From NCBI GenBank assembly GCA_041640595.1, contig JBEPZY010000002.1, positions 340,651-404,650 on the forward strand: a DNA stretch of 64,000 nucleotides, given 5' to 3'. The notes beneath the pieces are model-generated. The model made no database searches, was not told where the DNA came from, and worked only from the letters and a program-made list of their open reading frames with translations. The position numbers and the translations under genes are program-made. Below are positions 47,802 to 64,000 of the stretch, in pieces. The stretch is from Gemmatales bacterium. Its GTDB lineage: Bacteria > Planctomycetota > Planctomycetia > Gemmatales > HRBIN36. Each line of letters starts with the position of its first letter. Position 1 is the first letter of the stretch.

Positions 47802-48239
47802 CTATTGAGGTGCCGCCGGAGCTACGGGCATACGGACCCGGCGTTGCAGAGCCACACGGTTGGGAATGCCTGGATAGTTAGCCAGTGTCTCGAAGGTCCA
47901 GGCGGCGGTAACCACTATATAAGTCCGAGCGCTGCTGTCAGTTTCGTAGCGCCACGTGATCTCCGGTGCGGGTCTGATATCGGCCGCTTCAGCTAAAGCA
48001 GCGTCGCGGATGGACGAATAAGTCAGAGCCAGCGGCGAATAAGGATCGCTACCGTAAAGAGCACCGCTTCGGGCACAGTTTACGAGAATTTGCGAATAAT
48101 AAAAAATTCTTCCGTAATCTAAGGCCACTATGAAGAGAAACATCAGCAGCGGCAGGACTAACGCTAGCTCTACCGTCGCGGTAGCCGGTCGTTGTTTTCG
48201 GCGTTTAGTGTGCATGGTTCTAGCCCTCGAGGCAAGCAT
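47802..48239 (-). CDS. TadE-like pseudopilin
   Basis: ATATVELALVLPLLMFLF...DYGRIF...ARSGA. Confidence 0.86.
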   Translation of the reverse strand: MLASRARTMHTKRRKQRPATATVELALVLPLLMFLFIVALDYGRIFYYSQILVNCARSGALYGSDPYSPLALTYSSIRDAALAEAADIRPAPEITWRYETDSSARTYIVVTAAWTFETLANYPGIPNRVALQRRVRMPVAPAAPQ

Positions 48240-53636: not shown

Positions 53637-54380
53637 CTATCGCTGAGCTTCGCGAGTGAGCCTCTCCCATAGCTCGGGTTCGCTCTTCCTTCTCAGCTCC
53701 CAACGGTACGAATCGAGCCAGGAGAGCAAAAGAATACCGGCAACCCTAAACTGCCCATCCTCGTCTTTAGTTGCATCAATCGTGTAGTTGACGGCAAGTT
53801 TATAGTCCAGAATCGCGTAAGCACCGCGGCGAAACTCATAACCCGGTATCTGGGGCTGTGCACCTACTGTTTTCCACTCCTCGCGAAGAAGTTTCAATAA
53901 TCGCTGCGGACTTTTCTGGTTGATGATACCCAGTCGGCGGAATTCCGCTCGCAAATAAAGTTCCAGTTCTCGCAAGTCCTTGGCCGGATAAAGCCGAGTT
54001 ATAAAGACGAGAAAGACCTTTTCCGCGTCTTTACGCCCCCCAGCACGCACATGAACTACGCCCTCAGGTTCGAAACGCCAAACCCATTCTTTCCTGCTCG
54101 GCGCAGTAACTCGCATTACATACTCTGGTCGAGGCTGTTTTGGCAACTTGTCATCAAATTCGTCGTACACGTAATCGTACTCGTACAAGCGTATGCCCTC
54201 TTCGTCCTCATCCACAAGTGTCCACGGAATGCCGCTACTAGCTCGAAGAGGTTGACCAATACCGACCACGATATGACGTATAGGTCGTCGTGCAGGGTCC
54301 GGCTGGTCATCTGCTGAGACAGCAAAGTGCGAAATTTGCTGAAGTCCCTGGGCAAGCACTAACACTATCACCGTAAGCAT
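53637..54380 (-). CDS. hypothetical protein, putative exported immunity/partner
   Basis: 247-aa ORF; AAGGGGG RBS; hydrophobic N-terminus. Confidence 0.68.
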   Translation of the reverse strand: MLTVIVLVLAQGLQQISHFAVSADDQPDPARRPIRHIVVGIGQPLRASSGIPWTLVDEDEEGIRLYEYDYVYDEFDDKLPKQPRPEYVMRVTAPSRKEWVWRFEPEGVVHVRAGGRKDAEKVFLVFITRLYPAKDLRELELYLRAEFRRLGIINQKSPQRLLKLLREEWKTVGAQPQIPGYEFRRGAYAILDYKLAVNYTIDATKDEDGQFRVAGILLLSWLDSYRWELRRKSEPELWERLTREAQR

Positions 54381-54564
54381 AACTAACCCCCTTTATCCAG
54401 CGGGCAAGTTACGGTTTTGTATAATCCGCCTGAGCAGGGTGTTTGGCATCTTGTAAAAAGAAAGTGCTCTGATCTCTTCCTTGACCAAGTTCGGTTCGTT
54501 CTTCCAAAGTTTACGGGGCCATGATTCTTCTCCACGAAAATGTGTATCGCATCCAGCAATGTGC

Positions 54565-55080
54565 TTACTTCGGAATTCTGGTGGCAATTACGTAACAAAC
54601 AGGTGGCGAGCCCTTGTCCCAGTTGAACGTAAAATTCTTGGGTGTTTCACGGACTGCAAGCTTGCCTTGCGGATAAAAAGCGATCACCAGCTTATCTTCA
54701 ACAAACTTATAAATGGCCTTTAAATAAACCTTCTCCTTATCCCGCAACTCCAACCGCGCTGGCTTCTCTTCGGGATAAGAACTCCAGATTAGTTCCTTTT
54801 CCACCCGTTTCGCAGCATAGTGTCCGCACAGGAAAAAAGTACCGTCTTTTTTGAACGTACAAAAGCCTACTCCAAAAACTAAATAATCTGGGTCCAGTTT
54901 GTCCTCTGGGCAGCAGTTGACCACGCTGTCTCTGAACCACCAACTACCAATGAGGTGTTCATCTAGCATTGGTTTGCTTATCCTGTCTTCTCCTGGCAGC
55001 ACGCTACAGGCGATTACGACCATTAAAAAGCTTGTCACAAGGCTCCCCACTAGCGATACACGTCCAAGACGGATTAACAT
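54565..55080 (-). CDS. TIGR03067-like exported/lipoprotein, putative immunity
   Basis: Signal with VIAC; LIGSW...TFKKDG...KPARLEL...KAIYKFVEDKLVIAF...PKNF; AAGGAG RBS. Confidence 0.68.
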   Translation of the reverse strand: MLIRLGRVSLVGSLVTSFLMVVIACSVLPGEDRISKPMLDEHLIGSWWFRDSVVNCCPEDKLDPDYLVFGVGFCTFKKDGTFFLCGHYAAKRVEKELIWSSYPEEKPARLELRDKEKVYLKAIYKFVEDKLVIAFYPQGKLAVRETPKNFTFNWDKGSPPVCYVIATRIPK

Positions 55081-55118
55081 TGGAAGTCTCCTTATCCAGG
55101 TCTGAGTGTGCTTATTGC

Positions 55119-55646
55119 CTATTGCTTACCACCCTCGCCAGGGACGCGGCGATAAATCACAATTTCCGGCTGACCCATGCGAATATAGTCGTCAATATCT
55201 TTAGGAAAGTCTGAGGGGCGTTTATCTTCTGGTTTGTTCAAGACTTTTTCCCACAGGTAGCAGTTATCCAGGAAACACAGAAGTTCCACAACTTCTTTTC
55301 GTCTATCGTTTTTCACCTCCAGTAAGAGGTAGAACTTCTGCTCGCCTAACTCCTTGATGGAGTATTTACCGGTTTGGTTGAAAAAGGCAGGATCCGAGGT
55401 CTTGCATGTAAAGGTGCCATCCTTTCTCAGAATCAGCCAGGCTTCCACCTTTTGGGGTGTGTACGGCACGCCTCCGGAGAACACAGCCGCATCGAAAAGC
55501 ACCCGCTCCGCCCGCCAAGTGCCGATAACCTCGTTCCGAGGCTCGGCCTCTACCCACAGTATGCCCAGTAGCCCTAGCATCGCTACCAAAGATGGTCTAA
55601 TCAGGAGTCCAAATGTAGCGGCGCGATTGGCGTACATGCTTTCCAC
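55119..55646 (-). CDS. lipocalin/TIGR03067-like exported protein, putative immunity
   Basis: Hydrophobic N-terminus; VIGTW...LRKDGTF...GKYSI...KRPSDF; starts 4 bp after the upstream stop. Confidence 0.62.
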   Translation of the reverse strand: MESMYANRAATFGLLIRPSLVAMLGLLGILWVEAEPRNEVIGTWRAERVLFDAAVFSGGVPYTPQKVEAWLILRKDGTFTCKTSDPAFFNQTGKYSIKELGEQKFYLLLEVKNDRRKEVVELLCFLDNCYLWEKVLNKPEDKRPSDFPKDIDDYIRMGQPEIVIYRRVPGEGGKQ

Positions 55647-55649
55647 CTT

Positions 55650-58181
55650 TTATCTAGGTACCAGCCAATTCAGCTGCATATCCTCCACTTCATACCTAGC
55701 CCAAAACCATTTTCCTGCTACCTTTTTCACTTTTCCGGTCACGTAAAATCCAAATTGCTTTTCGCATAGTTGTTGAGTGTTTGGGTCTTCGAACTTGACT
55801 TTGCCAAAATAACCAACGTTTACATATCCATCTCCTGGTCTATAAGCAAGCACAACTGTGACATAACTTCCTCGCTCGTTTTCGAAGGTTTGGCAATAAA
55901 GCTTTACGTCTTTTTCAAGCCAGAGTTGCCAGAGACGCTTGACAATGTCGGTCGCTTGGTCTATCCGCTCCTTAGTTTCAACTATCCGTCTTATTATGTC
56001 CATACCTTTCGATTGCAAGATTAGCTGCTTGAGACGGTCTGTAGCCTCTTGCTGCAGGTCTTTAAAAAGTTCCAGCGCGCCTTCCGTAATGTGCGTATTG
56101 TGAAACCTATCAACCAAAGCCAGAGCATTCAATCGAACGAATTCCATCTCGGTTTGTGGGACGGCAGTATCCTTATTCCTATGTCGTATGTATCCGCCCA
56201 CCCGGCTCAGGATCTGGTTAATTTCACTGCGCCAGTCCCAAATGGAGTTATTCGATACCAAGTTGTTTGGCGCAACGAATACTCGCCAAATCAGGTGGCG
56301 TTCATCTACGGAGGCGGTGTCGCGCACCCGCAGCTCAACATGATATTCCATATAACCAAGCTCGGAATAATCGTGATCTGTAGGTGGCCACTGCGGAGCC
56401 GTCGCAGGGTCAACTATAGTACCCGCGATTCGGCCCGTCGCTGCATCTATAATAAGCTGAGGGGGCAGATTTTCGGCCTCGAAGATCCAATCCGCATCGT
56501 CGCGGGCGGCCGTCGGAACCACCGCATCTATCTCCTCGCCCATCCAGGTCTCCACCACCAAGCCGTCTTCTAACAATATACGAGGATTGTCGAGGATCGT
56601 CCAGGTGAAGGTTCTCAGCTCAGCGTCGGGAATTGTTTCAACTTCTACCTGATATCCTACCTCCGGCTGAGCGGGTGAAGCATTCCGGTAAGCCACACGG
56701 CCTCGCAAAGCTCCGTTCTGTGCGTCCCAGACAATTCCTTGCGGTAGATTGGCAAAACGATACTCCACCGGTTGCCCAGAAACATTCTCGCCCGGCAGTT
56801 CAATGTACACCTCCTCGCCCTCTAAATTAGTCAGGTTCGGCGGTGCCGACCACCAGTCCTTATCCTGGACTGTCCAGGTGACCGTCCTCATATCCTCGCT
56901 CTCGCCATCAGTAACGCGAATGTTTATAATGAATTCCCTCACTCCTTCTATAGGGCCAACATTGCGATAAGAAACCGTTCCAGTAATGCGTCCTGTCGCC
57001 GAGTCTATTCTTAGACCCCGGGGCAGGTTATCCGCGGCATACGTCAAGCTGGCTCGCGTCGCGTCTTCCGCATTTATTTTCACATTTATATAGTCGCCTT
57101 CGCTGATAATAACATCCGGCACAACAGGAATCCTGTTCGTATCCTCAACCTGCCACCGGAACGTCTTGCTCTCCATACCTGTCCCGTCGTTCACGAAAAT
57201 GGTGACTTCCAAGGATCGGGCGTGACCATTGCTGGCAATGTTAGCGTAACTGACATAGCCATACACCAGCCCCGAGTTTGCAAAGTATTCCAGACCCAAT
57301 GGCAATCCCGAATAATGGATTACCAAAGTCTCCCCATCCATCCTGGCGACTGGGGGTATCCAGAAAATAAAATCGCCCTCCCTTGAAACTTGGTCAGATA
57401 TAGACCCTAACCTAGATGTGTCCCTAATCGTCCACGTGCAACTATCGCTTTGGAAACTATTCCCATCGCCTTCTTTGGTAACGGTGATAATAACATGAAA
57501 ATCCACCGGTGGGGCGTTGCTGGCCACATTACTGTAGGCGATATAACCTTGCAGATAGGCACCCGGTTCTCTGCCATCTTCTGCAACCTCAACATAGACA
57601 ACGTCAATGCCGTCCGGCAGACCGGTTACTGTATAGCTAAGCGCATTGCCTTGATCATCTACCAGTGGCCCAATATAGATGCTAACATAATCCCCCTCGG
57701 CATTATATAGATGCCAAGTGTTGTCGCTATTTCCCCAGGACTCTCCACCGCCATCACTGTCGTTCGTTCCCGGAAGTGGTTCATCCAAGTTCGGATTATC
57801 CTGGATGAGCCAGTTGAAGCTGATCGTTGAGGTGTCACCGTCGGCCTGGTTGACGACAGTGATAGTAACCCACAGGTTGACCTGGGGTTGTTCCGCAGTG
57901 GCAATGTTAGAATCTATCGTGCCACTAATAACGCCGATGCTGGAGTCTATACTTAGGCCAGCGGGAAGATTATAGGCACTAAACATCAAGGGGGCCTGGC
58001 TGTTCAGGCCGGCATACGCAGAACCCCAAAGCGATTGCAGGTCAAGATAGACATAGTCGCCTTCGCTATTAGATTGGTCGCCAGGACTAAGCAAGATATA
58101 GTCCGTATTGCGGATGGTCCATGTCGCCGATGTCGAGGCGGTCTCAACACCGTCGCTGACGGTCAGGGTGATGGTATATTC
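55650..58181 (-). pseudogene. 5'-truncated putative-Ig (He_PIG-like) repeat protein with unknown ~200-aa C-terminal domain (orphan cassette)
   Basis: Six (N/G)LPxGLxID..TGxIxG-type repeats; the frame stays open upstream of the TTG at 58094 to a stop at 58182-58184 and begins mid-repeat (EYTITLTVSDGVETASTSATWTI). Confidence 0.75.
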
Positions 58182-58345
58182 CTAGGTAGCCACTAATATC
58201 CACTCAATGATGGCGTACGCTTAGGCCATTGACCGCTGCTTCCTTTGAATGGGGAATGTAGAGGGTGCGTTACAAGGCTCCTGATTTGCTGCTATGGCAA
58301 AAGCGTGCCGAAGATGCGTGCAGGTGGGATCATTGTCTCACAGTT

Positions 58346-59437
58346 TCATTCTTTCATACGCTGCCAAGGTTCACCCGTCCGCACATCTAAGAGCATAATA
58401 CTGTCAAAGACAATGCCGTCGCTGCCCGTCCCTACGGCAACCACGAAGTCGCCTGGTTTGAGGCTGCAACCACTGCAACTCCACGACTTAGACCATACAA
58501 CTTTCAAACGCTTGAGATCGTACAACGTGACTAGATTGGAATTCCAGACCACCATATAGGAATCCATCCCAGAACAAAGCACCTCAATAGCCGCGCGGTG
58601 ACTGATACCCTGAATTAGTGTCGAGCCAAGAACTTTGCCCTTTCGCCAATCCCACCATCGAAGTTCTCCAGTAAAATCCAACGCAAGCAGAACCCGATCA
58701 TCTGGTGTAAACGCTAACGCGGTGATACAGTCGTCTCCATCTGCCAGGCCGTCAGCAGTGAGCTTTCCCGTGCGTAGGTCGAGGACGTCTATTAGTTCCC
58801 CGTCCGATATAGCGAGATAGGCCCCATCATGAGAAAACGCACTTACCGGATAAGGCGGCCCAGGCATGCTCGTGCGATGCTCCTTGATTACCCGGCGAGT
58901 GCTGATATCTAAGACGACACAACTGATACCTTCCCAATTCTCAGTACGAGCGACGACAGCTGCGTATTTGCCGTCGGGAGATAGAGATAGTCGAAAGGCC
59001 GCGCGTCCACGCCATACAATCTCCGGCTGCGCGTGATTATCTCTTATAAGGATTGAGTAAAGCTTTCCTTCTGGGGTAAAATACAGCAATTGTCCCCGCG
59101 ATTGGGGCACCCAGGCGAACCCACAACGCTGTGCCCGCTCAGCATAGCGTTTCTCAAGCACGCCGGCCCGTGGGCCATTCCGGACTTCATAGTATTGATC
59201 CAGCACAATCTCTCTGACCGGTCGCCAGTTGCGTGTGTCACACACGAGAACAGTTCTATAGAGCGTATCACCGAAACGGCGTGTGGTTGTCATAGCTAAA
59301 TATTCGCCGTCTTCTGAAAATCTCGGATCACTTATCCACTCTCGGCGAAGAAACCAGAGACAGGAGTCGTTTCCAAAAATGATTGGCTCTTTATAAAGGA
59401 GCGCCATTGCCAAATATATAGCATATGCGATCGCCAT
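58346..59437 (-). CDS. exported WD40/beta-propeller protein (partner of cassette 59506-60006)
   Basis: AGGAG RBS before ATG 59437; FSEDGEYLA, LSPDGKYAA, FSHDGAYLA, ITALAFTPD...LRWWD. Confidence 0.82.
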   Translation of the reverse strand: MAIAYAIYLAMALLYKEPIIFGNDSCLWFLRREWISDPRFSEDGEYLAMTTTRRFGDTLYRTVLVCDTRNWRPVREIVLDQYYEVRNGPRAGVLEKRYAERAQRCGFAWVPQSRGQLLYFTPEGKLYSILIRDNHAQPEIVWRGRAAFRLSLSPDGKYAAVVARTENWEGISCVVLDISTRRVIKEHRTSMPGPPYPVSAFSHDGAYLAISDGELIDVLDLRTGKLTADGLADGDDCITALAFTPDDRVLLALDFTGELRWWDWRKGKVLGSTLIQGISHRAAIEVLCSGMDSYMVVWNSNLVTLYDLKRLKVVWSKSWSCSGCSLKPGDFVVAVGTGSDGIVFDSIMLLDVRTGEPWQRMKE

Positions 59438-59505
59438 GTTGGTCTCCTGTGATGGTTGGTTCCATATCTTTTCCTGTCCAGACACTTCTGAAGTTGTCCC
59501 GAATT

Positions 59506-60006
59506 CTAGTTCCAGCCCCACTCCGGCTGCGGTTTAGCCTTGGGAGGCGGCTTGAGGGTACCTAAATGTTCGTATGCGATCCGAGACGTGCCATCGGGCT
59601 GTGTATAGTACACCTTCACTTGTACGAACCAACGCGTGCCATCCCATATCGGTGCCACCAGGTTGGCTTGTAATGTAGCAGTACCACTCAACGGCCCATT
59701 CGGCTTCCAGTCTAAGTCTGGCTGCCCGCCGCCTATCGCAACGCGGGTAATTGCACTTCCATTTGGCACGGCTTGAAGCGTGACCGAAAAATTGTCACCC
59801 TTATTACCAGGAATCGCCACAGGATTCAGGACGACCTTGCCCCGGAGTGGGCGTGGCGCCTGCCGGGCAGGTCTACCCGGTAATTGCATCGCCAGAAGAT
59901 TAGCTACATTGAGCGGCGGTGGCCCGACTTGCCGTTCGCCTTCCGGCGGTTGTTGCAGCATCTGCGTACGGGCGGATTGGTAAGTTGGCTGGACCTTTAC
60001 TTGCAT
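59506..60006 (-). CDS. orphan C-terminal cassette: QMLQQPPEG junction plus beta-rich tip
   Basis: YQSARTQMLQQPPEG matches the 61426-62358 cassette at protein and DNA level. Confidence 0.72.
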   Translation of the reverse strand: MQVKVQPTYQSARTQMLQQPPEGERQVGPPPLNVANLLAMQLPGRPARQAPRPLRGKVVLNPVAIPGNKGDNFSVTLQAVPNGSAITRVAIGGGQPDLDWKPNGPLSGTATLQANLVAPIWDGTRWFVQVKVYYTQPDGTSRIAYEHLGTLKPPPKAKPQPEWGWN

Positions 60007-60242
60007 TTTGGTTCAATCAAGTACGCCATTATTCTGTAAGACCCTAGCCTGTATCTTTATGATTCGAAGGCCATCTGCTGGACATCCAGTCATTTATCTG
60101 GTCTTCAGAGAAGTCCCCAGACCTGCGGTTCAGTCCCTTAGCACTACCTTGACCTGCCGAATCCATGCTTTACATTGTTCTCGCCTTGGGGACATTTTTG
60201 TCAAGTATTCGTCAAAATAGACCTAAATAACGCATTAGGGTT

Positions 60243-61361
60243 CTATCGTCGCAGAACAACTGGCTTAGCACTCCATTGTCTGGTCACCACGTCTATGCTT
60301 CGCAGTTGCAATCCGGCCTTGGATTGAATTAGCAGAGCACCCAGGTCTCCACGTTGATTTGTTGTGAACCGAGAAATCGCGCCCTCATCCGCCACCTGCT
60401 CTCTGAAAGAATGAGACCAGACCGGGCGAATAGTGGCTCCACACTCCAAAATTACAACATCCCGATCATCGTATAGTATTAACTGCGGTTTGTCGCCCTT
60501 TCTCAAGTACCGGAGATCAAGTGCGCCCCGAGGCGACAGCTCCACCGTTCCTAGTTCTGTACGATTTCCTAGGTCAAAAAAGTGTATAGTACCGTTGCGG
60601 TGCGAGCCGGCCAACGTCTTTCCGTCAGGGCTGAACGCTAAAGAGAAGTAATCGCCACTTGAATCCGCTTGCGACGCCAGTTCCATTGCTCCTTGGTGGG
60701 GCGCGGCTAAGTTGTAGATGAATATAGAATCGTAATCTGTAACTGCTAGCAGGTTGGAACAATCAGAGAAGCTACACGCCGGAGGTATTTGCGAGCGCAC
60801 AGAAAGGCTATTAATATGCAACACTTGTTTCCTAGAAGCAACCTCTAAAACCTGGACCCTGTAATCTTCTCCCGCCGCGTCCCAGGACACTAACGCCAAA
60901 TACTTGCCGTCTCGACTATATACCAATCTAATAACGGGCAAATTTAGGGAATCAACCATGACCCGTGCCTTTTGATTTTTTAGATCAACTTGCCAGAGGC
61001 TTTTTCTCTTCGATCCGTAAACGAGTGTATCAGGATTAGCCGGGTCCCATTCCAGGCCGACCAGACACTTTCCCTGGTGAACATCAACCGCGTCCTTGAA
61101 TATGCATTCCCCTGTCGTCGTGGAAAATACCAAAACTGTTAAATCGGTTACAGAAGGCAATTCTTGCCCTTGCTTGTGCTGCCACAAGGACTCGACAACG
61201 GCTAACAGCTTCCCGTCCTGGGACAGCTTAGGAAAATCAAAGAAACGCAGTTCAGCTTGTCTGCTGAATAGAGCACACCCATCTTGACTAAAGTTCAATC
61301 CTAGCCAGACGCCACAGGCCACCACATAGGCGCAGCATCGGATAATCGGGGTCATACGCAT
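60243..61361 (-). CDS. exported WD40/beta-propeller protein (partner of cassette 61426-62358)
   Basis: Signal-like N-terminus; LSQDGKLLA, YSRDGKYLA, SLAFSPDGKTLAGSHRNGTIHFFD. Confidence 0.84.
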   Translation of the reverse strand: MRMTPIIRCCAYVVACGVWLGLNFSQDGCALFSRQAELRFFDFPKLSQDGKLLAVVESLWQHKQGQELPSVTDLTVLVFSTTTGECIFKDAVDVHQGKCLVGLEWDPANPDTLVYGSKRKSLWQVDLKNQKARVMVDSLNLPVIRLVYSRDGKYLALVSWDAAGEDYRVQVLEVASRKQVLHINSLSVRSQIPPACSFSDCSNLLAVTDYDSIFIYNLAAPHQGAMELASQADSSGDYFSLAFSPDGKTLAGSHRNGTIHFFDLGNRTELGTVELSPRGALDLRYLRKGDKPQLILYDDRDVVILECGATIRPVWSHSFREQVADEGAISRFTTNQRGDLGALLIQSKAGLQLRSIDVVTRQWSAKPVVLRR

Positions 61362-61425
61362 GAGAGTCCCCCCAGAAATTGGACCCGTTAATTCTATTCG
61401 CTCACCAGCCTCGTGTCTTGACGAG

Positions 61426-62358
61426 TTATGGCCTTCGGATTATCTGTCCATAGCCAAATTGGATGGAACCATCGGGTGCCATGATTGTGACTTTGACGTC
61501 CCAGCCCCAGGTATTTCGTGGAAAGTCGGGAAAATACCTACCTAAGTCCACAGCAGGTCCAAGCCCATTCCCCTGCACTGTCACTTGTATTTGTCCTTGT
61601 CCCTGTCCGTTGAGTTTAACGCCCCTGGGAAAATTGAAGTGCGCCTGGTTTGCACCGGTTATATTGACATCTATGATTTCCCCTCCAGGCACTCCGAGGC
61701 TTATGCTGATATTATAATTTTCGCCTGCTCGACCTGTGCCTGTCCCTGGATTTATTGTCACTTTCGCCCTCGGTATCCTCTTGCGTTGCTGAGCAACCAT
61801 TACCACCGATGCTAGCGCCTCACCAAAAACCGGCTGGGGTTCCTGATTACGCGGACCTTCCGGCGGTTGTTGCAGCATCTGCGCGCGGGCGCGCTGATAG
61901 GCGTCCCAGGCTTCGGTTTCCCTCTCCGTCCAGTCTCGCAGGGCGTTGTTGCGAGCTGTCTGGAATGCCGCTTCCAGGATTTGCCGTGTGTGCCCCAGTT
62001 GGAAGTTGAGTTCGTCCAAGCGTTCTAAATATTGATTCCAGGCCTGCGAATCCGCCTGTATATAGGTGGACTCCGCCGCATTCATCGCCGCCTGCCATTC
62101 ATCATACGCCGCCTGCACTGCCTCTGCTCGCGCCGCTCCCGCCTGATCTAATGCAGTGTAGTATGCGGCGTAAGCCTCCGCCTCTTCATTAGCGTATTGC
62201 TCGTCTTGATACGAGTCTGCCAATCGCGCATCCCGCCTGGCTGCCGCCTCTGCATAGGCCTGGTCGCGCATGGCAGTGGCATACGCAATAGCATTGTCTA
62301 AGTCTTGCTGAGCTTGCTGATACGCCGCATAACCACCGGCATCATCGGCATGTTCCCG
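61426..62358 (-). pseudogene. 5'-truncated Ala/Tyr/Gln-rich helical stalk plus QMLQQPPEG junction plus beta-rich tip (orphan cassette)
   Basis: Frame open 29 codons upstream of ATG 62271 (REHADDAGGYAAYQQAQQDLDNAIAYATA) to TAG at 62359-62361, with the same composition as the ORF body. Confidence 0.72.
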
Positions 62359-62422
62359 CTAGCTGTGGCGCCGATAGCACCGATCCTATGGCGGATCCAA
62401 AGCCCACGACGGAACGGATTTG

Positions 62423-62785
62423 TCACTGCCTTTGTCCTTGGATTCTGGCCAGATACTCGCGGAATCGCTCCAGCACATGCTCCAGCCAGCCTATTGCAGT
62501 GTAGCCGTCGGCGCTGGGAAGATAATGAACACCCATGCTCTCGACCGGGTACCAATCATCTTTCTCTGGATGCTTCGATAAATACTCACGTGAAAAAGCT
62601 AAGTATTCTTCCAGCTGGTTGAGCACCTTCTGGACGTACTCCGGGCTGGTGTTGCTCAAGAACGCGTCTATCGCGCCTTCGGGTGAGCCGTAGTCGTCCA
62701 TAAAATCTTCGTGGAAATAGCCACCAAAAAACTGCCACAGTTCTGGCCATCTGTTTGTGCAATAATCATCAAGGCGCATTTCCAT
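62423..62785 (-). CDS. CdiI-like immunity protein (partner of the RNase A-fold toxin)
   Basis: WPELWQFFGGYFHEDF...AIDAF...WLEHV; AAGGAG RBS; directly downstream of the toxin; no signal peptide. Confidence 0.85.
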   Translation of the reverse strand: MEMRLDDYCTNRWPELWQFFGGYFHEDFMDDYGSPEGAIDAFLSNTSPEYVQKVLNQLEEYLAFSREYLSKHPEKDDWYPVESMGVHYLPSADGYTAIGWLEHVLERFREYLARIQGQRQ

Positions 62786-62813
62786 GCTCCTTGCATTTCA
62801 CCTTAATTCCAGT

Positions 62814-64000
62814 CTAAGGATCAATATATGCAGTTTGAATTCTGAAGCCTAACGCAGATTTCGAATCCCTAAACAGCACAACTCTAACCTTATGTCCCCC
62901 CTGCAGCTGGCTAGCACCCCTGGCAAGCACCTGCCCAACAGGTTCTGAGAATTGTGTTTGGAGGGCCAGTGAGCGAGCCTCCTGGCCGGTTTGGCGCAAC
63001 CAATCGGCAATTTTGTCAGCATGTGCCTCCAGGACTCGGGCGATGTAATTCTCCGCTTCGTCCAGTGAACGAAAAGTACTGACTGTCGGAAGGTTTGGCT
63101 CTGCTTCCAAACGCTGGAGCAACTCCCTCAGGGACTTGCCCACGTGTTTTGAGATGGTATGCCCGCCAAGACTCTCGTGATAGAGTAAACCACTTTCATG
63201 CCCAAAAAATCGTTTGAGCCACTCCTTTTTGAGCTGGCCTGGTGTAGTGAACAGACGCCGGGAGAACATGAAACGATCTTCTAGCCCGGCGGGAAGCCGT
63301 GGCCCAACTCGGGTGCCGAGTATCACATTTCCATCTCCGGCTATCACCCACCGCCGACTGGCGTTAGCAACGTCGGAGGCGCTTTCCAGCGTCAGGGCTC
63401 CAGCACCCTTGCCTGCCGCTGATACGACAGATCCTTCGCCAGCAAGCAGCAAGTGGCGGGTGGGAGCAGTAAGGTCGTAGGCACGATGCAGGGTTATCGC
63501 TTTAGCACTGGAGTAAAAACCTGCACCCATGGATAGTCCTATATCTGTATATATGGCTGCCCTTTCAGCATGCTCAGGTGGCAGCACGAACTCGTAGCCG
63601 TAGCGCAACGCGCTCTGGGTAAACGTCTCGCGGTCCTTCCCATCTAGCATATTGCACCAGCCAGTGCGCAAGTTGTCCCAACCGTGAAACACCAGAAATG
63701 TCCCTGCGCCTTTCGTCGTCAGGCTCGGGTCAGGCGAAAGTATAAGTCCAGCTCCTCCAACCACTTCCAACGCACCTCCAACCATCATTAGTCCGTTTAC
63801 CACGTACCGGCGAATCCACGCCCGTACTCCCCCTGACTGGGCCGGCGTCGCACTTATCACTAAACTCATACCTATGGGGTAATAATCAATGTGCGAGTTA
63901 GAATCCTGCTCGCTAGTAGTATTCTGACTGCATGAAGTTTGCGCATGACCAAAGCTATCCTGGACAGGTAACAACAAATCCGCGGTCGGCATCTGCGACT
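62814..64000 (-). CDS. polymorphic toxin C-terminus: Gly-rich hydrophobic pre-toxin segment plus bacterial RNase A-fold (CdiA-CT-like) domain; frame open at the window edge
   Basis: GGALEVVGG...PDP..TTK...HGWD pre-toxin motif; HESLGGHTISKHVGKS...LLQRL...STF...PVG...VRVVL...IQTAY. Confidence 0.86.
   Translation of the reverse strand, partial: SQMPTADLLLPVQDSFGHAQTSCSQNTTSEQDSNSHIDYYPIGMSLVISATPAQSGGVRAWIRRYVVNGLMMVGGALEVVGGAGLILSPDPSLTTKGAGTFLVFHGWDNLRTGWCNMLDGKDRETFTQSALRYGYEFVLPPEHAERAAIYTDIGLSMGAGFYSSAKAITLHRAYDLTAPTRHLLLAGEGSVVSAAGKGAGALTLESASDVANASRRWVIAGDGNVILGTRVGPRLPAGLEDRFMFSRRLFTTPGQLKKEWLKRFFGHESGLLYHESLGGHTISKHVGKSLRELLQRLEAEPNLPTVSTFRSLDEAENYIARVLEAHADKIADWLRQTGQEARSLALQTQFSEPVGQVLARGASQLQGGHKVRVVLFRDSKSALGFRIQTAYIDP

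Follow-up and report, generated by a model that had tools for sequence, protein, structure and literature searches.

Tip and partner cassettes in a Gemmatales genome: a probable silent store of a phase-variable polymorphic toxin system

Polymorphic toxins, as catalogued by Zhang et al. 2012 (PMC3482391), join a constant N-terminal trafficking part and a spacer to a variable tip, with the immunity gene following the toxin gene, and they feature orphan cassettes, Hint processing and tips of the restriction endonuclease (REase) and ribonuclease (RNase) types (here and below, statements on cited papers apply to the parts of each source that were available). These traits recur in the subject of this paper, an array of four orphan tip/partner cassettes (A to D) at positions 53637-64000 of a 64,000-nucleotide (nt) stretch from a Gemmatales bacterium (GCA_041640595.1, contig JBEPZY010000002.1). 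We call the whole stretch the window (G000:C2:340651-404650, where G000 is the genome) and use extended numbering, i.e., window positions continued past 64000, for what lies beyond its end. The locus has the genomic hallmarks of a polymorphic toxin system: variable tips, orphan cassettes, and an RNAse_A_bac domain with CdiI_2 adjacent. We therefore think that the array is probably where a phase-variable polymorphic toxin system of Gemmatales-type planctomycetes keeps its silent cassettes, and that this system would use a leader-dependent export route.

Its route differs from those in the catalogue. Table 1 of Zhang et al. lists leaders for Sec/type II secretion (T2SS), type V, VI and VII secretion systems (T5SS, T6SS, T7SS), PVC, TcdB/TcaC and PrsW, and the abstract adds MuF; the planctomycete leader described below is not among these, and the stalk of the carriers has no Pfam match. 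The phrase “phase variation” has no occurrence in the first 300,000 of that paper's 357,715 characters. Likewise, in the available text of Nachmias et al. (10.1101/2021.10.19.465003), “planctomyc” does not occur and no such trafficking domain is listed.

One tip has a match among contact-dependent growth inhibition (CDI) toxins. Tip A aligns with the RNase A-fold CdiA C-terminal toxin of Y. kristensenii (PDB 5e3e; PMC5435912; E 1.8e-11), retains residues equivalent to the four functional ones, His175, Arg186, Thr276 and Tyr278 (numbering inferred from spacing), and is followed by CdiI_2. The carriers, however, are unlike CdiA: they are built of immunoglobulin (Ig) domains and a helical stalk over about 800 amino acids (aa), whereas CdiA is a beta-helical filament, and Pfam scans and a pattern search of carrier and array found no two-partner secretion (TPS) domain, haemagglutinin repeats or VENN. 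PF03865 and PF05860 (CdiB/TpsB and TPS) gave no match in the genome, where the control profiles were silent too. An Rhs carrier was rejected because DPxG and YD patterns are absent from the array (the search covered three sense frames of 53637-66880, and its outcome agrees with the original prediction, made from the window's letters, of no YD/Rhs core, DPxG or VENN) and TIGR03696 matches only unrelated loci. A T6SS effector was rejected too, since PF04717 (VgrG) was not found in G000 (95% complete) while controls matched, and the carriers bear neither PAAR nor VgrG.

Other described systems share single aspects. Neisseria MafB/MafI islands (PMC4287609) are likewise lineage-restricted, with a modest-sized carrier, silent C-terminal cassettes and immunity genes, but here the N-terminal domain is different, no MafA-like gene was seen, heads and stores are dispersed over several loci, and the heads have a putative repeat switch. 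Planctomycete leader proteins (PMC8567305) carry the same N-terminal motif followed by Ig or cadherin domains; they are described there as surface proteins and hydrolases (“toxin” has no occurrence in the available text), unlike the present carriers with their swappable tips, partners and frameshifting repeat. Homopolymer tracts in group B Streptococcus also frameshift toxin-delivery genes (PMC9900821), but those tracts sit in the T7SS machinery genes essC and esaA, whereas here a tract lies at the 5′ end of each individual toxin carrier. In a green sulfur bacterium, giant transferred proteins carry a related LEPRxLL motif (10.64898/2026.03.19.712371), and PMC10952558 lists the leader motif only as a signal peptide. 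Within the literature searched, we found no description of this system, and the use of the planctomycete leader for polymorphic toxins together with a repeat switch looks undescribed; most subscription papers and key supplements fell outside that scope, so supplementary tables may list such architectures. The delivery route had been predicted to be possibly undescribed, and this holds in part: the export signal is a known planctomycete motif, and it is the toxin use and the repeat switch that look undescribed.

Carriers, cassettes and the export leader

An intact carrier lies at G000:C8:40379-42781. It consists of an LxLExLExRxxP leader, two Ig domains, an Ala/Gln/Tyr helical stalk of ~310 aa and a swappable tip (a new one in this gene), and it is followed by a partner gene and an orphan stalk remnant. 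Pfam finds only He_PIG on the carrier and NCBIfam finds nothing. The stalk is 26% Ala with an aromatic period of 11 residues, and from its sequence may form a long coiled coil or hairpin.

The array is related to such carriers at the DNA level. The C8 carrier is 87% identical over 1107 nt to a carrier head lying just outside the window, and 86% identical over 492 nt to cassette B, while cassette D is 96% identical to a second, Ig-only carrier type at C3:562094-562500 and C3:568916-569802. Overall, cassette remnants are 83-96% identical to the C8 and C3 loci or heads, so recombination could swap a tip and its partner onto an intact head; a similar layout occurs in L023, L025, L032 and L035-L037. 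In cassette D, homology to the carrier begins at the codon directly following an in-frame TAG, cassette B starts mid-stalk 10 nt past its stop, and cassette A likewise starts after an in-frame TGA. These three mid-domain starts have no evident ribosome-binding site; most partner genes have one. B and C share the 36-nt junction at 94% identity. A scan for promoters and terminators gave results at chance level only.

Four cassettes in this order, two of them beginning mid-domain after in-frame stops, had been predicted, and the array bears this out, with cassette A as a further case. The prediction also expected a single carrier combining Ig repeats with a helical stalk, beyond 64 kb. An intact carrier of this kind does exist, at C8, but the head just past 64 kb is a dead remnant, and cassette D comes from the Ig-only type. 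A full-length carrier directly upstream of the array is ruled out by that broken head, after which unrelated genes follow past 66.9 kb. Three lesions break this head: its ribosome-binding site is altered, its leader carries a 52-nt insertion that L036 shares, and a deletion after ~58 stalk residues removed most of the stalk plus the tip. Its 354 nt of upstream sequence match those in front of the C3:561713 head at 92% identity, which makes the window head a chimera of two head types. Also upstream of it is a 31-nt direct repeat with a 66-nt period (G000:C2:407699-407795, L001; ~3 kb past the window end).

The other heads in the genome end in different tips. The second-type head on C3, with leader and Ig, has a frameshift and then a CDI-type REase at its end (PF21111, E 2.3e-14), with orphan cassettes behind it, and a third head at C3:425941 encodes a leader, Ig and PT-HINT plus a C-terminal domain (E 2.1e-17), followed by an orphan Hint cassette. 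Two more heads, on C3 near 617500 and on C2 near 584440, surfaced through a search for repeats. The fifth head (C3:611950-617536) has Big-type Ig repeats, an in-frame stop and a tip that looks transglutaminase-like (Cys/His/Asp by eye), then an orphan hydrolase-like tip, and each of these two tips is followed by a gene with a hydrophobic N-terminus.

Behind the stalk we counted 66 tips of at least 80 aa in about 35 single-linkage clusters, drawn from 63 stalk proteins (among 153 database proteins collected) and 17 loci; the sets share some duplicates, include a few frameshift read-throughs, and may split distant families. The stalk thus has many differing C-termini in place of one constant end and the gene upstream of the array is neither Rhs nor CdiA, and both results support the earlier interpretation of the locus as a polymorphic system. 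P0001-P0006 show the same pattern of a constant N-terminal part and variable C-terminal tips. The N-terminal spacers of stalk carriers also vary (He_PIG, Big_9, cadherin, Calx-beta), and Pfam matches were rare among the 39 tips scanned: RNase A, calpain and one Chlam_PMP repeat. Two tips in G017 have Cys/His motifs that by eye suggest papain-like peptidases, one of them near a BsuPI-like gene. The window's own tips, or relatives of them, are found on full-length carriers, with the RNase A family on P0005, a B-like tip on P0003, tip C on P0002 and tip D on P0122 (68%), and tip C is also present in L032 (92.5% identity). Tip D and the small genes x1-x3 behind it were absent from all other loci retrieved. 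The database names of P0122 and P0003 (Vgr family protein and dextran-binding lectin) do not fit, as the sole Pfam match is He_PIG, ahead of a variable tip.

All three other genomes of the genus yielded the stalk, as did 16 of 267 across the order and none of 400 elsewhere in the phylum, the last in a search that used one query and scored few candidates per genome. A match in Schlesneria was Ala-rich and was not counted. Most public runs in which the C8 locus occurs are metagenomes of hot springs or mats.

The N-terminal motif of the heads follows a basic stretch and matches the LxLExLExRxxP form of a proposed planctomycete surface-protein leader, LxLExLExRxxP / RRLxxExLExRxLLA (PF07595; PMC8567305). 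Of 37 called proteins whose stalk start is complete, 21 have it, as do 21 further open reading frames (ORFs) of this genome. No PF07595 match passes in G000 or five relatives, so the profile is insensitive in this order. The carriers would be exported through this leader, and the machinery that reads it, which is not identified in PMC8567305 or the other literature examined, could be linked to Sec/T2SS.

Repeat tracts at carrier heads

In all six carrier heads of this genome, the ATG is out of frame with the leader across a dinucleotide tract, compared to none of the 21 other leader ORFs. The latter are what remained of 28 leader-motif matches after three heads and four chance matches were set aside; they have no tract, and 19 of them have an in-frame ATG. 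This feature was absent from the original prediction. The four heads found by homology carry (CA)10, (CA)4, (AC)5 and (TC)5, and their ATG has a ribosome-binding site, altered in the window head. Dinucleotide tracts of at least four units occur at about 0.006 per 120 nt, and tracts of at least six units number only five in 4.45 Mb, three of them at these heads. Genome-wide, there are 35 arrangements of site, ATG and repeat, and the six with a downstream leader are the six heads. The six tracts lie at C2:407449, C8 near 40420, C3:561742, C3:425925, C3:617501 and C2:584448. One repeat step opens ORFs of 795, 748, 1701, 312, 54 and 87 aa. In each head, then, a repeat in the 5′ coding region sets the frame by its length, and the protein would be made only in cells where that repeat has slipped.

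Relatives show the same arrangement with other units, in counts that span related, non-independent genomes. Tract length varies between homologous heads: DNA shows 4, 10 and 5 units, and P0001 and P0002 imply 7 and 10. Within the genus, two heads are out of frame with (AC)6 and (TC)4, one is out of frame without a four-unit tract, and one has lost its ATG. In another family, 15 stalk heads had upstream DNA: eight have a tract of at least 8 nt, six have none and one is ambiguous. The eight tracts are G8, G9, C12 or (ACTC)4 (the last read by eye), and seven of them put the head out of frame, with L097 in frame; all six tract-free stalk heads are in frame. Half of the eight tract-bearing heads have another in-frame ATG, which in three lies just before the motif and would skip most of the leader. 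As a control, we took 25 loci, of which three had no motif and three were stalk heads; of the remaining 19, 16 have no tract and keep the frame.

An in-frame GTG upstream of the CA tract was considered as the true start, and C8-type tracts of 4, 7, 10 and 10 units do keep its frame. It is disfavoured because it has no usable ribosome-binding site, whereas the ATG has one, because other heads show the opposite offset, and because L036 and L097 have the ATG in frame. Offsets of +1 and +2 both occur, which argues against one programmed ribosomal shift.

It could also be that the repeats are marks of decay or give only low-level transcriptional slippage, with the array being the relic of a system unused in this genome. 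Consistent with this, the window head is dead, and the ORF lengths above mean that one repeat step restores a complete carrier in only two of the six out-of-frame heads (C8 and C3:425941), the other four having further lesions. Contigs of four public runs, a form of data that drops rare variants, show no indel at the C8 tract, and the contig of one run has the same four-repeat tract. A relic, however, does not sit well with different tract units (CA/AC, TC, G, C and ACTC) at the same position across lineages, with the in-frame L097, with the concentration of long tracts at heads, with the presence of both offsets, or with intact tip and partner ORFs. We therefore regard it as quite improbable, and a phase-variable toxin system remains our preferred reading.

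Tips and their partners

The partners of different tips appear to belong in different compartments. By hydropathy, the N-terminus holds a hydrophobic segment in 20 of the 21 partners that go with non-nuclease tips, versus none of three partners of nuclease/Hint tips (a fourth such partner was left out of the count). Among WD40 partners, similarity tracks that of the tips: W3 and the L023 partner are 35% similar, W2 and W3 24%. A complex model of tip C with W3 scored 0.73 (best control 0.02), with runs sharing at least 48% of contacts and a partner predicted local distance difference test score (pLDDT) of at least 74; the score mark is reached by 116 of 157 solved pairs and 2 of 215 mismatched pairs. 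The best contacts link the first strand of tip C with a propeller segment of W3, and the model supports binding between the two. The T6SS immunity protein Tsi1 is a known beta-propeller, so WD40 immunity alone is not new. Beta-propellers as immunity proteins were stated not to have been found in the earlier catalogue (PMC3482391). TIGR03067 proteins occur in tip loci L099, L100, L030 and L025 and at G000:C2:584623-587145, several of them directly after Ig-type carriers that have an Asp-rich beta tip at their end, which suggests that this uncharacterised family is one of partners or immunity proteins.

If the array belongs to a toxin system, it would most likely work as follows. The head would normally be off, and a slipped repeat between the ATG with its ribosome-binding site and the leader would turn the carrier on in a minority of cells. 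The leader would route the protein to the cell surface, where the Ig domains and stalk (or more Ig or low-complexity spacer) would present the tip, with the partner gene next. Nuclease tips would act in the target cytoplasm and be blocked by cytosolic immunity proteins, while most other tips would act in the envelope and be bound by exported WD40, LRR or TIGR03067-like partners, such that kin are protected in the compartment matching the tip. Going by the model interface, tips B and C would most likely bind an envelope protein by an exposed edge strand that the WD40 protein covers. Recombination through stalk or Ig remnants could then reload an intact head elsewhere with a tip and its partner.

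Several observations weigh against this, in addition to the lesions and the uniform C8 contigs described above. Export, switching, recombination and the toxicity of tips B-D are all things that we infer. Because two of the six heads came from the repeat search itself, only the other four form an unbiased set. The carriers fall below the PF07595 cut-off (P0012 scores 20.5 bits against 25.5). Tips B and C have an Ig-like fold with no enzyme match (best VIA Z 8.3) and no evident active site, and tip D has no assignable family, its weak model (pLDDT 67) having only a cystatin/NTF2-like resemblance with a best Z of 5.8. Enzyme folds were accordingly rejected for tips B and D, which also had no Foldseek match at E 0.001 or better; in the ESM Atlas, tip D had no usable match and tip C only scores under 0.9. 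Tip C was modelled with its cognate W3 alone. Finally, 3 of the 19 non-stalk leader genes in the control combine poly-G with an out-of-frame ATG. All three belong to G221 (L126, L127 and L128, on C176, C183 and C19) and have a passenger-like body in place of the stalk; L126 shows no evident toxin tip and has a WD40-like gene behind it.

Some of these points would suit a mixed system. Its nuclease and peptidase tips would be toxins, but its Ig-like and alpha+beta tips would serve as non-toxic ligands for identity or adhesion, with the exported WD40 proteins as their receptors or chaperones; both kinds of tip would rely on one swapping machinery, and the ligands would act in kin recognition or phase-variable adhesion. 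The top structural matches of tip B include adhesin and complement domains, the G221 gene lacks a tip, and the modelled binding of tip C to W3 suits receptor and ligand equally with toxin and immunity protein. Repeat-driven phase variation is also typical of surface adhesins. However, the Ig-like and alpha+beta tips have their stalk, their orphan arrays and the order of tip then partner in common with the RNase/CdiI cassettes, partners are kept after loss of their tip (W1, x2 and x3) as immunity genes are, and they carry ordinary hydrophobic N-termini, not the surface leader. We thus consider a mixed system unlikely, and favour a toxin role for all of the tips.

A bolder reading, which we put forward tentatively and hold somewhat less likely to be true than not, is that the leader feeds a toxin route missing from the catalogues, that Gemmatales use it for bet-hedged carriers, each off in most cells and on in a slipped minority, and that most tips are new envelope-acting folds, among them non-enzymatic Ig-like tips with periplasmic WD40 immunity, with TIGR03067 as a further immunity family. 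A small carrier with a lethal tip could serve as a selectable reporter for the leader-reading machinery. The many tip clusters, mostly without Pfam match and some apparently non-enzymatic, could reveal targets in the envelope, which is unusual in this phylum. A role is also suggested for many unexplained exported WD40, leucine-rich repeat (LRR) and TIGR03067 proteins. If toxin genes are individually phase-variable, then carriage of a weapon would be a stochastic minority trait in hot-spring mats.

Array layout and neighbouring features

The island has a GC content of 0.515, versus 0.59 for the contig. The RNase A-fold tip and CdiI-like gene of cassette A were both correctly predicted; its stalk remnant and hydrophobic pre-toxin segment, partly outside the window, had been missed. 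Probably x1 is the partner of tip D, and x2 and x3 are orphan partners; homology between x1 and x2 was not detectable.

Table 1. Features of the cassette array and of the adjoining DNA, in extended numbering past 64000.
Feature	Position	Strand	Details
Broken carrier head: ATG, (CA)10, leader with 52-nt insertion, two He_PIG, first ~58 aa of stalk, then deletion	65851-66858		outside window
WD40 partner W1	64604-65842		outside window, upstream of cassette A
Cassette A: stalk remnant, hydrophobic pre-toxin segment, RNase A-fold tip	62814-64541	-	RNAse_A_bac E 5.7e-29; continues past window end
CdiI_2 immunity protein	62423-62785	-	E 1.1e-16; no hydrophobic N-terminus
Cassette B: C-terminal half of stalk, Ig-like beta-sandwich tip	61426-62348	-	model pLDDT 86.5
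WD40 partner W2	60243-61361	-	after tip B; hydrophobic N-terminus
Cassette C: ~60-nt junction remnant (59914-59974), beta-sandwich tip	59506-60006	-	tip related to tip B
WD40 partner W3	58346-59437	-	hydrophobic N-terminus; modelled to bind tip C
Cassette D: Ig-repeat remnant of second carrier type, ~205-aa alpha+beta tip (about 55650-56267)	55650-58181	-	He_PIG E 1.6e-30
x1, small protein	55119-55646	-	first gene after tip D; hydrophobic N-terminus; no Pfam/NCBIfam match
x2, small protein	54565-55080	-	hydrophobic N-terminus; weak TIGR03067 match, E 0.0011 (below cut-off)
x3, small protein	53637-54380	-	hydrophobic N-terminus; end of island

Related fragments are scattered over the genome. 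Orphan Hint-toxin cassettes at C10:60500-63700 are close to those at C3:419-421 kb and lie beside a transposase and a CRISPR-like array, and C9:36351-37011 (L005) holds a lone RNase A-fold remnant with a CdiI gene, 42% to the cassette A pair, and no carrier. Rhs core remnants without heads and with varied tips occur at C3:72700-80500, C2:266053-266598 and C6:43437-43955, one of them followed by a WD40-like gene with a hydrophobic N-terminus. By eye, CRISPR-cas-like operons adjoin two carrier loci (C8:21000-38000 and C3:417000). A TadE-like pilin ORF, also recognised by eye, lies near the island at window positions 47802-48239, and Flp pilin and prepilin peptidase-like genes lie ~7 kb from the fifth-head locus on C3.

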